Position numbers and translations under genes: made by a program. The notes under the pieces are model-generated. The model was given only the letters and a program-made list of their open reading frames with translations. It did not search any database and was not told the DNA's origin. A DNA stretch of 14,562 nt, taken from UHGV virus genome UHGV-0177146. One strand, written 5' to 3'. This document shows positions 13,296 through 13,378 of the stretch, one piece after another (within the stretch, counting starts at the first letter, position 1; the number at the start of each line of letters is the position of its first letter). The DNA is from a virus.

Positions 13296-13378
13296 ATGGG
13301 ACGATGTTAAGACTCTAAGGCATGAGCAACGGCCTCCAAAACCGTTTCAAAGGGGTTCAACTCCTCCGTCCCATGCCA
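13296..13378 (+). tRNA. atypical tRNA-Trp-like gene (anticodon CCA in CTCCAAA loop), 80 nt plus CCA, expanded D region
   Basis: Perfect acceptor ATGGGAC/GTCCCAT, G73 and a CTCCAAA anticodon loop as in tRNA-Trp, T-arm AGGGG-TTCAACT-CCTCC. The D region is ~6 nt too long and the anticodon stem closes with a C:A mismatch. Confidence 0.55.

Follow-up and report, generated by a model that had tools for sequence, protein, structure and literature searches.

A probable, structurally deviant tRNA-Trp(CCA) gene with a long acceptor-to-D connector in Felix O1-like phages

The DNA analyzed here (14,562 nucleotides (nt) of virus genome UHGV-0177146; hereafter the window) belongs to a Felix O1-like myovirus (Felixounavirus, Ounavirinae) and holds its cluster of transfer RNA (tRNA) genes; Felix O1 itself is a classical phage, widely used for typing Salmonella and in biocontrol. 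On the + strand of the window, positions 13296-13378 carry an 83-nt tryptophan-like tRNA with a perfect 7-base-pair (bp) acceptor stem, the anticodon CCA, the discriminator G73 and an encoded CCA end, but with a connector of nine nucleotides between acceptor and D stems. We conclude, at a probability of roughly 0.6, that this element is a genuine, expressed and structurally deviant tRNA-Trp(CCA) gene of Felix O1-like phages that is maintained by selection. This reading was preferred because the RNA structure is selected, the tRNA hallmarks are invariant, the determinants for tryptophanyl-tRNA synthetase (TrpRS) are present, and the element resembles Escherichia coli trpT; it was also preferred because the element fills the sole tryptophan gap of the phage tRNA set, because other Trp tRNAs replace it in relatives rather than adding to it, and because it lies in a tRNA-operon setting. 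A functional tRNA-Trp, which would be charged and would decode, is the best reading of the sequence.

Anatomy of the element and its absence from tRNA predictions

Homologues of the element were gathered by BLAST against a phage collection, by a pattern scan of viral contigs, by a second viral scan in which the connector was left unspecified, and by a metagenome scan anchored on the 3' half only. Together these gave 15 distinct variants, from Felixounavirus, Suspvirus, Mooglevirus, Pectobacterium phages Wc4-1 and Arno, Yersinia phage P778 and 3 metagenome contigs; statements on conservation refer to these variants unless a smaller sample is named. One locus from the connector-free scan (L064) was a chance match with no tRNA fold and was discarded. 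The parts of the element, in window coordinates, are as follows.

13296..13378, + strand: whole putative non-canonical tRNA-Trp(CCA) gene with encoded CCA (111.5 bits with a family covariance model; exact coordinates returned by ARAGORN in mitochondrial mode)
13296..13302, + strand: acceptor 5' strand ATGGGAC, containing A1 and G5 (7/7 Watson-Crick with 13368-13374)
13303..13311, + strand: acceptor-to-D connector GATGTTAAG, 9 nt against the normal 2 (1/9 columns variable)
13312..13327, + strand: D-arm, with an A·C apposition, stem CTC/GAG (13313-13315 with 13324-13326) and 8-nt loop TAAGGCAT (13316-13323)
13328..13332, + strand: anticodon stem 5' strand AACGG, directly abutting the D-stem and pairing with 13342-13346
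13333..13341, + strand: 9-nt anticodon loop C-CTCCAAA-A (C13333/A13341 non-pairing in 12 distinct variants)
13342..13346, + strand: anticodon stem 3' strand CCGTT
13347..13351, + strand: 5-nt variable loop TCAAA (invariant in the BLAST-derived and 5'-anchored samples)
13352..13367, + strand: T-arm, with 4-bp stem GGGG/CCTC (13352-13355 with 13363-13366), loop TTCAACT (13356-13362) and C13367
13368..13378, + strand: acceptor 3' strand GTCCCAT (13368-13374), discriminator G13375 and encoded CCA (13376-13378)

An initial annotation of this DNA had described a perfect acceptor stem (ATGGGAC at 13296-13302 with GTCCCAT at 13368-13374), a Trp-like anticodon loop CTCCAAA (13334-13340) and G73 (G13375), all of which were confirmed. 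It had also described an expanded D region, possibly a D-arm insertion. The surplus length is real, but it sits in the acceptor-to-D connector (9 rather than 2 nt, ~7 extra nt), and the D-arm proper is ordinary. Written as RNA the connector reads GAUGUUAAG, with G instead of U at position 8. The three Watson-Crick pairs of the D-stem are paired in 100% of cases, two of them with double changes, and the D-loop GG corresponding to G18G19 (13319-13320) is conserved in all variants; the flanking A13312·C13327 forms a standard pair in none of 12 distinct variants.

The C:A mismatch that the initial annotation placed at the end of the anticodon stem (C13333/A13341) is likewise real and conserved, although the helix as a whole comprises five Watson-Crick pairs located one step toward the D-stem (AACGG-CCTCCAAAA-CCGTT). 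All five pairs are formed in 100% of cells, and double compensatory changes occur in 4/5. Among 12 variants, positions 13333 and 13341 are only C·A or C·C (loop consensus C-[C/U]UCCAA[A/C]-[A/C]); because they never form a standard pair, the anticodon loop is effectively 9 nt long. It retains a U33-like T13335, the anticodon CCA at 13336-13338, and A13339 and A13340 in the places of A37 and A38. Numbered canonically, the arm has exchanged its 31-39 pair for a Watson-Crick 26-44 pair, and the count of stacked layers is therefore unchanged; the anticodon helix is thus best read as shifted one step toward the D-stem, leaving the 9-nt loop.

The acceptor/T branch provides 12 stacked layers, either as a 7/5 arrangement containing an A·C mismatch (A13351/C13367) or as an 8/4 arrangement in which G13303 pairs with C13367. 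The 8/4 reading was favored by 2.4 kcal/mol (-22.1 versus -19.7 kcal/mol), and since G13303-C13367 is G-C in 12/12 variants, covariation is uninformative on this choice. The TTCAA of the T-loop (13356-13360) is conserved in all variants when scored as T54-T55-C56-R57-A58, the outer T-stem pair undergoes a G-C to U-A double change in Mooglevirus, and acceptor pairs 1:72 (AU/GU/GC) and 2:71 (UA/CG) covary. A candidate pseudoknot between AUGU of the connector and the 3' half of the D-loop (GCAU or GUGU) was paired in 97.9% of cells, with changes only from Watson-Crick to wobble and 1 broken cell, and would compete with G19-C56. The connector would most likely either enlarge the tertiary core or protrude as a loop.

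ARAGORN in default mode called 19 tRNA genes in the window, on the + strand between 11475 and 14473, and made no call at 13296-13378; Rfam at gathering thresholds, which found 17 tRNAs in the window, returned nothing for the element. The canonical fold that the initial annotation had allowed a program might recover was therefore seen by neither default ARAGORN nor the Rfam tRNA model (RF00005), which gave no match at the element even at E <= 10; in permissive mode the sole Rfam return was tRNA-Sec, at 23 bits against a threshold of 47. ARAGORN in mitochondrial mode called Trp(cca) at exactly 13296-13378, and relaxed ARAGORN settings gave nonsense calls. When any 6 consecutive nt within element positions 9-18, or the 5 nt at positions 14-18, were removed in silico, default ARAGORN called tRNA-Trp(cca). 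Since shortening the connector restores the call, the insertion is the only obstacle to detection and alone explains why the tRNA was missed. A covariance model built from the element family scored its members at 89-112 bits and ordinary tRNAs at <=40 bits; standard tRNA finders have a blind spot here, which such a simple family-specific model removes.

The gene is also missing from the annotations that were checked. None of the GenBank relatives inspected has a tRNA annotated at the locus, and some have a hypothetical coding sequence (CDS) there. The published genome papers on Felix O1 and wV8 do not list the element, the Felix O1 table giving 22 tRNAs with no Trp (PMC3185647), and our literature searches found no description of it.

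Selection on the RNA and its tryptophan identity

Across the 15 variants, 98.9% of the cloverleaf pair cells are standard pairs. Double compensatory changes affect 9/19 pairs, in 39 cells, with all four helices represented. The covariation score was 0.42, compared with 0.17 for shuffled alignments, and 0/500 shuffles reached 0.42; as the variants are phylogenetically related, these shuffle statistics overstate independence. Sturdier evidence comes from controls in which pairing partners were slid, which gave <=2 isolated compensated cells, and from the variety of pair types, with as many as four at a single position. The compensated stems were already apparent in a MAFFT alignment made without structural input. 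The anticodon stem occurs as AACGG/CCGTT, GACGG/CCGTT, GTAAG/CTTAC, GTAGG/CCTAC and ACTTG/CAAGT, and the D-stem as CTC/GAG, CAC/GTG, TAC/GTG and CGT/ACG; in Michonne and in L085, a metagenome contig and the most divergent member, both stems are entirely rewritten and still 100% paired.

While the stems were rewritten, the connector was not. Only 1/9 columns of GATGTTAAG varies (one T to C, in one phage), against 13/16 in the D and anticodon stems, and in L085 the connector is identical. The same near-invariance was found in the samples gathered without the connector in the search pattern. A connector that is nearly invariant beside rewritten stems is constrained at the level of its sequence. 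Also invariant are the anticodon CCA, U33, A37, G73, the CCA end, the D-loop GG and the T-loop TTC(R)A; in the metagenome sample the search pattern itself prescribed the variable loop, the T-arm and some of the acceptor, whose invariance there is thus no evidence.

According to the co-crystal study of E. coli TrpRS with its tRNA, recognition depends mainly on the anticodon and G73 and to a lesser degree on A1:U72 and G5:C68, and the enzyme touches nothing but the anticodon and the first five pairs of the acceptor (PMC12135181). All of these identity elements are present in the window (CCA at 13336-13338, G13375, A1:U72 and G5:C68). Across the variants the anticodon, G73 and G5:C68 are invariant, and pair 1:72 is AU in 7, GU in 5 and GC in 3. 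From the 3' strand of the D-stem through the anticodon arm, 19/22 positions are identical to E. coli trpT, for which we used a 100% match to the annotated tRNA-Trp, present in one copy per genome.

The phage tRNA set has a place for such a gene. In E9 (PP886229.1), the closest complete genome, the upstream spacer and the element are 100% identical to the window; ARAGORN found 26 tRNAs for 19 amino acids in E9, with Trp alone missing, and the genome's own annotation has no Trp tRNA. Given that the E9 set is short of Trp only and that the element is Trp-like, the element completes a 20-amino-acid set.

A 1-kb stretch around the element matched 279 phage records (best 99.2%), and ~230 sequenced relatives carry the element. 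In ~23 relatives (~10%; wV8, phiSUSP1 and several O157 typing phages), the match to the window breaks off precisely at the element's 5' end, and a different, 71-nt tRNA-Trp(cca) occupies the same slot; this gene is callable by ARAGORN and is followed by a gene for a 134-amino-acid HNH endonuclease (phrog_2255, E = 1.5e-45). The two alleles share the locus, the anticodon, G73-CCA, the upstream spacer and the downstream tRNA-Ser, but the 71-nt allele of wV8-type Felixounavirus and Suspvirus deviates in the opposite direction, with a 1-nt connector, a 3-bp D-stem and a 5-nt D-loop beside a normal anticodon arm. The 71-nt gene and its HNH gene resemble a homing cassette without an intron that takes the place of the 83-nt allele. 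Erwinia Kolesnikvirus phages lack the element and have a 76-nt tRNA-Trp between Gly and Thr elsewhere in the cluster; its anticodon region, GG-CUUCCAAAC-CC, is identical to the Pectobacterium version of the element. Wherever checked, there was one Trp(CCA) gene per genome, and 3/4 forms are structurally deviant. The relevant loci in relatives are listed here.

L005 1647-2136, wV8 (EU877232.1), equivalent to window 13296-13391: 71-nt tRNA-Trp(cca) allele
L058 3786-3861, 1330-1404 and 1030-1100, Erwinia phage vEam_PM_6: tRNA-Trp(cca) and two odd tRNA-like genes
L059 1964-2046, Hafnia phage vB_HpaM_SarahDanielle (MW749010.1): unannotated 83-nt Trp-like tRNA

The Hafnia gene is parsed as AGGTGAG / AAGTTTTTAAT / GAGT-ATGGT-ACTC / AG / CGTGG-CTCCAAA-CTACG / TAACA / GAGGG-TTCGATT-CCTTT / CTTGCCT / G / CCA. 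Its connector, AAGTTTTTAAT, is 11 nt long, its anticodon loop has the normal 7 nt and its D-loop 5 nt; it too was missed by default ARAGORN and called Trp(cca) in mitochondrial mode. Its neighbors are tRNA-Ser and tRNA-Thr, and at this place number _94 is missing from the GenBank locus_tag series. The tRNA-Trp(cca) of vEam_PM_6 has only 3 Watson-Crick anticodon-stem pairs, U27·U43 and C31·C39 being mismatched, and the same cluster holds a Glu(ttc)-like gene missed by ARAGORN and a 'tRNA-???' called with a 2-nt anticodon. The 71-nt allele is annotated as 'tRNA-OTHER' (flagged as a pseudogene) in wV8 and as tRNA-Trp in the O157 typing phages, and three Vibrio jumbo phages carry a ~78% similar sequence.

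Known tRNA architectures and competing explanations

The two-nucleotide U8-N9 connector is among the most constant features of cytoplasmic-type tRNAs. Several observations weigh against a working tRNA-Trp. The 9-nt connector, with G for U at position 8, breaks this highly conserved feature, and the unpaired 31·39 leaves a 9-nt anticodon loop. The folding energy of the single sequence is unexceptional (z = -1.39). The Pectobacterium and Yersinia phages have a 1-nt bulge in the acceptor stem, and the acceptor of L085 has U2·U71 and C3·U70 mismatches; such irregular acceptors in divergent lineages could impair binding by RNase P, TrpRS or EF-Tu. Finally, for the stretch between acceptor and D stems a 2020 review of naturally occurring non-canonical tRNAs speaks of 'two unpaired bases', and the review contains no long-connector class (PMC7609411).

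Measured against canonical bacterial tRNA-Trp(CCA), as represented by E. coli trpT, the element shares the CUCCAAA loop, G73-CCA, A1:U72, G5:C68, the GAGC at the 3' side of the D-stem and the 12-layer acceptor/T branch. It differs in having the 9-nt GAUGUUAAG with G8 instead of U8-A9, an A10·C25 mismatch and a 4-bp T-stem, and in having 26:44 as a Watson-Crick pair, 31·39 unpaired and a 9-nt loop. By the usual tRNA criteria (RF00005 and ARAGORN default), the four-arm cloverleaf, the D-loop GG and the T-loop motif are present; the 2-nt U8-N9 connector, the 7-nt loop with a 31-39 pair and a score or call above threshold are absent. It does not belong with tRNA-Sec (RF01852), given its 23 bits versus 47, its anticodon CCA rather than UCA and its 5-nt variable loop. 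With the (8/4) tRNAs of Mukai et al. (PMC5389517), a class also found in phage tRNA clusters, it shares a possible 8-bp acceptor and 4-bp T-stem; known members are Ser, His or allo-tRNAs, many with long variable arms and Sec-like D-arms and none described with a long connector, and the element is not demonstrably an 8/4 tRNA.

If the element is indeed a functional tRNA-Trp, it would be co-transcribed with the flanking tRNA-Arg and tRNA-Ser genes, and would be excised by RNase P and 3' processing at the regular acceptor/T helix ending in G73-CCA. The host TrpRS would then charge it through the CCA anticodon, G73 and the first acceptor pairs, elements which are present in the gene, and decoding of UGG would give the phage its own tRNA for the twentieth amino acid and lessen its reliance on the single-copy trpT of the host. 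We consider it doubtful, though worth stating, that the invariant connector is a functional module of this Trp-charged, ribosome-active tRNA, one which might evade a defense nuclease or alter decoding, for instance toward more UGA or near-cognate reading. Were this so, no natural elongator tRNA before it would have been shown to function with a long linker between acceptor and D stems.

The strongest rival reading is that the RNA resembles a tRNA without decoding, acting as a decoy or sponge for a defense nuclease, TrpRS or a modification enzyme, or as a regulatory tRNA mimic, with the connector as its functional novelty. In its favor, the connector matches the anticodon loop in conservation amid rewritten stems, and phage tRNAs are known to counter host defenses that cleave tRNAs, among them systems reported to cut acceptor stems, anticodon loops or D-loops (PMC12916289 and its references). 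The imperfect acceptors of the Pectobacterium and Yersinia phages and of L085 are the main reason why a non-decoding mimic stays a live alternative. Against it stand the conservation of every feature of a working tRNA (the CCA end, G73, U33, A37, the T-loop and the D-loop GG), the position of the element as the only Trp candidate in a set otherwise covering 19 amino acids, and its exchange at the same locus with a conventional-looking tRNA-Trp; moreover, no partner protein was identified. On balance we regard a decoy or mimic as unlikely. Like phage tRNAs that withstand tRNA-cleaving defenses (T5 tRNA-Lys against PARIS; mycobacteriophage anticodon-loop variants), the element differs from the host isoacceptor and belongs to a near-complete set. 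Apart from retron Eco2 in vitro (PMC12916289), no defense directed at tRNA-Trp in these hosts was linked to the element; evasion of host tRNA nucleases may by analogy be taken as a lead to the cause of the odd body.

A further lead, also by analogy, is provided by tRNA-Trp molecules whose altered bodies promote UGA readthrough, and the element could be a functional tRNA-Trp(CCA) that reads UGA besides UGG, as a natural suppressor of the Hirsh type or of the '4-bp anticodon stem' type. Readthrough of UGA by tRNA-Trp(CCA) increases with A9C, with G24A or when one anticodon-stem pair is lost, and C27A gave a ~2.5-fold rise in E. coli (PMC13092985). The element has the exact bottom-unpinned geometry with the loop extended by 2 nt, a subclass counted as 267 genes in bacteria by the same study, which functionally tested only the top-unpinned (27:43) class, and its insertion falls at the position 9/10 junction. 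With the Blastocrithidia-like 4-bp anticodon-stem tRNA-Trp(CCA) it shares the lack of one of five canonical anticodon-stem pairs, but in the element 27:43 is always Watson-Crick paired and covaries, the extra 26:44 restores five pairs, and it is the bottom pair that is open. With the Hirsh-type suppressor (G24A, A9C) it shares an altered body at the junction of position 9/10 and the D-stem and a retained CCA anticodon; the alteration, however, is an insertion and not a point mutation, and neither G24 nor the A in second place of the connector has changed. Stop usage in E9 also argues against suppression, being ordinary (TAA 101, TGA 34 and TAG 12 of 147 annotated CDS) and not reduced for UGA, and in-frame extensions past UGA are short (median 4, maximum 37 codons). 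A UGA-reading tRNA-Trp accordingly seems a rather poor explanation. Genome-wide recoding of UGA was rejected, given the ordinary stop usage of E9 and its lack of long post-UGA extensions. We observed separately that the median in-frame extension in E9 is 4 codons for UGA-terminated genes and 9 for UAA-terminated ones, which may reflect ATGA start/stop overlaps.

Two explanations that deny the RNA any function fared worse. The initial annotation had entertained a pseudo-tRNA, and a former tRNA-Trp disabled by insertion would be rejected by gene finders, as this one is; other tRNAs of Felix O1-like clusters were indeed marked 'pseudo' by tRNAscan-SE (PMC3185647), and conservation could then reflect short divergence times. 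Neutral decay, however, breaks pairs instead of compensating them, whereas comparison of the orthologues, which the initial annotation had itself proposed, revealed 39 compensated cells at 9 pairs, with compensatory changes keeping all four helices across several phage genera and with invariant hallmarks, loops and connector. An alignment artefact is unlikely, as the structure-free MAFFT alignment agrees. These data contradict a degenerate gene, and decay is highly improbable. Still more remote is conservation from a cause other than RNA, such as a protein or a DNA signal (a promoter or a homing-endonuclease site). A 67-codon open reading frame (ORF) is annotated over the region in E9 as a hypothetical CDS, a promoter is annotated in the upstream spacer of AYO145A, and HNH endonuclease genes are inserted around the locus in relatives. 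The E9 ORF is broken by stops in six relatives (Suspvirus, Mooglevirus, Pectobacterium and Yersinia), the promoter given for AYO145A is no more than a sequence-pattern match and falls on the other strand, outside the element, and compensatory pairing marks RNA and not DNA signals. Together, the compensated stems and the stop-broken ORF led us to reject both pseudogene decay and protein coding.

The tRNA cluster and the meaning of the element

The element lies among the other tRNA genes of the cluster, 18/19 of the ARAGORN-called ones also having an encoded CCA end. Its immediate surroundings comprise the following features.

12845..12873, + strand: sigma-70-like promoter TTGACA-17-TATAGT, upstream of tRNA-Arg (11/12 consensus matches; a pattern match only)
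13077..13153, + strand: tRNA-Arg(tct), upstream neighbor and synteny anchor
13392..13481, + strand: tRNA-Ser(tga), downstream neighbor, beginning 13 nt past the element

Felixounavirus, the Pectobacterium and Yersinia phages and L085 all share the gene order Arg(tct), spacer, element, Ser(tga). No terminator-like site was found in 12800-13800, and the promoter-like site at 12845-12873 may drive the segment containing the Arg, Trp-like and Ser genes. The 142-nt spacer at 13154-13295 is 92-100% conserved in phages with either Trp allele, similarity ending exactly at the tRNA 5' end, and it holds a strong Shine-Dalgarno-like TAAGGAGGTG and a hairpin, CATGTTTTCCAGAACATG.

The neighboring tRNA-Ser(tga) is itself marginal: it scored 31.1 bits with the Rfam tRNA model (threshold 29) and 36.9 bits with tRNA-Sec, it ends in GCC followed by T, so that it alone among the 19 called tRNAs lacks a complete encoded CCA, and it is omitted from several GenBank annotations (E9, UAB_69, Alf5 and Felix O1). 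An 8/4 structure was considered for this tRNA and set aside; RNAfold prefers a long acceptor, but a 7/5 form with G·U pairs is equally possible and the ARAGORN call is normal. In Alf5-type Felixounaviruses (NC_031082.1, L004 856-1203) an HNH endonuclease ORF stands in place of tRNA-Arg(tct) (window ~13077-13153), and ARAGORN called no tRNA-Arg(tct) at that site in Alf5. Homing-endonuclease cassettes appear to have made the tRNA cluster a mosaic.

Elsewhere in the cluster, a partial tRNA match of 22 bits, below threshold, lies at 12338-12388 in the tRNA-free gap 12137-12596, and sub-threshold matches of the transfer-messenger RNA (tmRNA) type (29.6 and 14.3 bits) lie at 12771-13076, between tRNA-Ile and tRNA-Arg; E9 and many relatives have ~90 extra bp in the gap 12829-13077. 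Directly upstream of the cluster, 9894-11309 (+ strand) encodes a 471-amino-acid protein with DUF2828 and DUF7788 domains, classed by PHROGs as 'RNA-binding protein' (phrog_850, E = 1e-182) and without a sequence match in PDB. A link between this protein and the tRNA cluster is conceivable. The idea of a Ro60/Y-RNA pair was dropped, as the protein is DUF2828 plus DUF7788 and the ends of the element form an acceptor stem with CCA, unlike a Y RNA. E9 also encodes a polynucleotide kinase and an ATP-dependent ligase, at 76818-77513 and 45857-46960 (L061 31818-32513 and 857-1960); in T4, a kinase and an RNA ligase mend tRNAs cleaved by host anticodon nucleases.

For annotation, the element turns the apparent 19-amino-acid tRNA set of E9 into a complete set of 20. 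If it functions as a tRNA-Trp with this body, it would represent a new tRNA architecture in Felixounavirus, Suspvirus, Mooglevirus and the Pectobacterium and Yersinia phages, alongside the Hafnia phage with its 11-nt linker. If active, a selected linker of 9-11 nt would show that RNase P, an aminoacyl-tRNA synthetase, EF-Tu and the ribosome can work with a broader range of tRNA bodies than is known, and would offer a natural scaffold for engineered tRNAs. All three Trp tRNA forms found in this phage subfamily depart from the norm in the D or anticodon-stem region, and changes there are known to affect how faithfully tRNA-Trp decodes. One Trp allele travels with a homing endonuclease; the locus is a tractable system in which to ask why phages remodel particular tRNAs.

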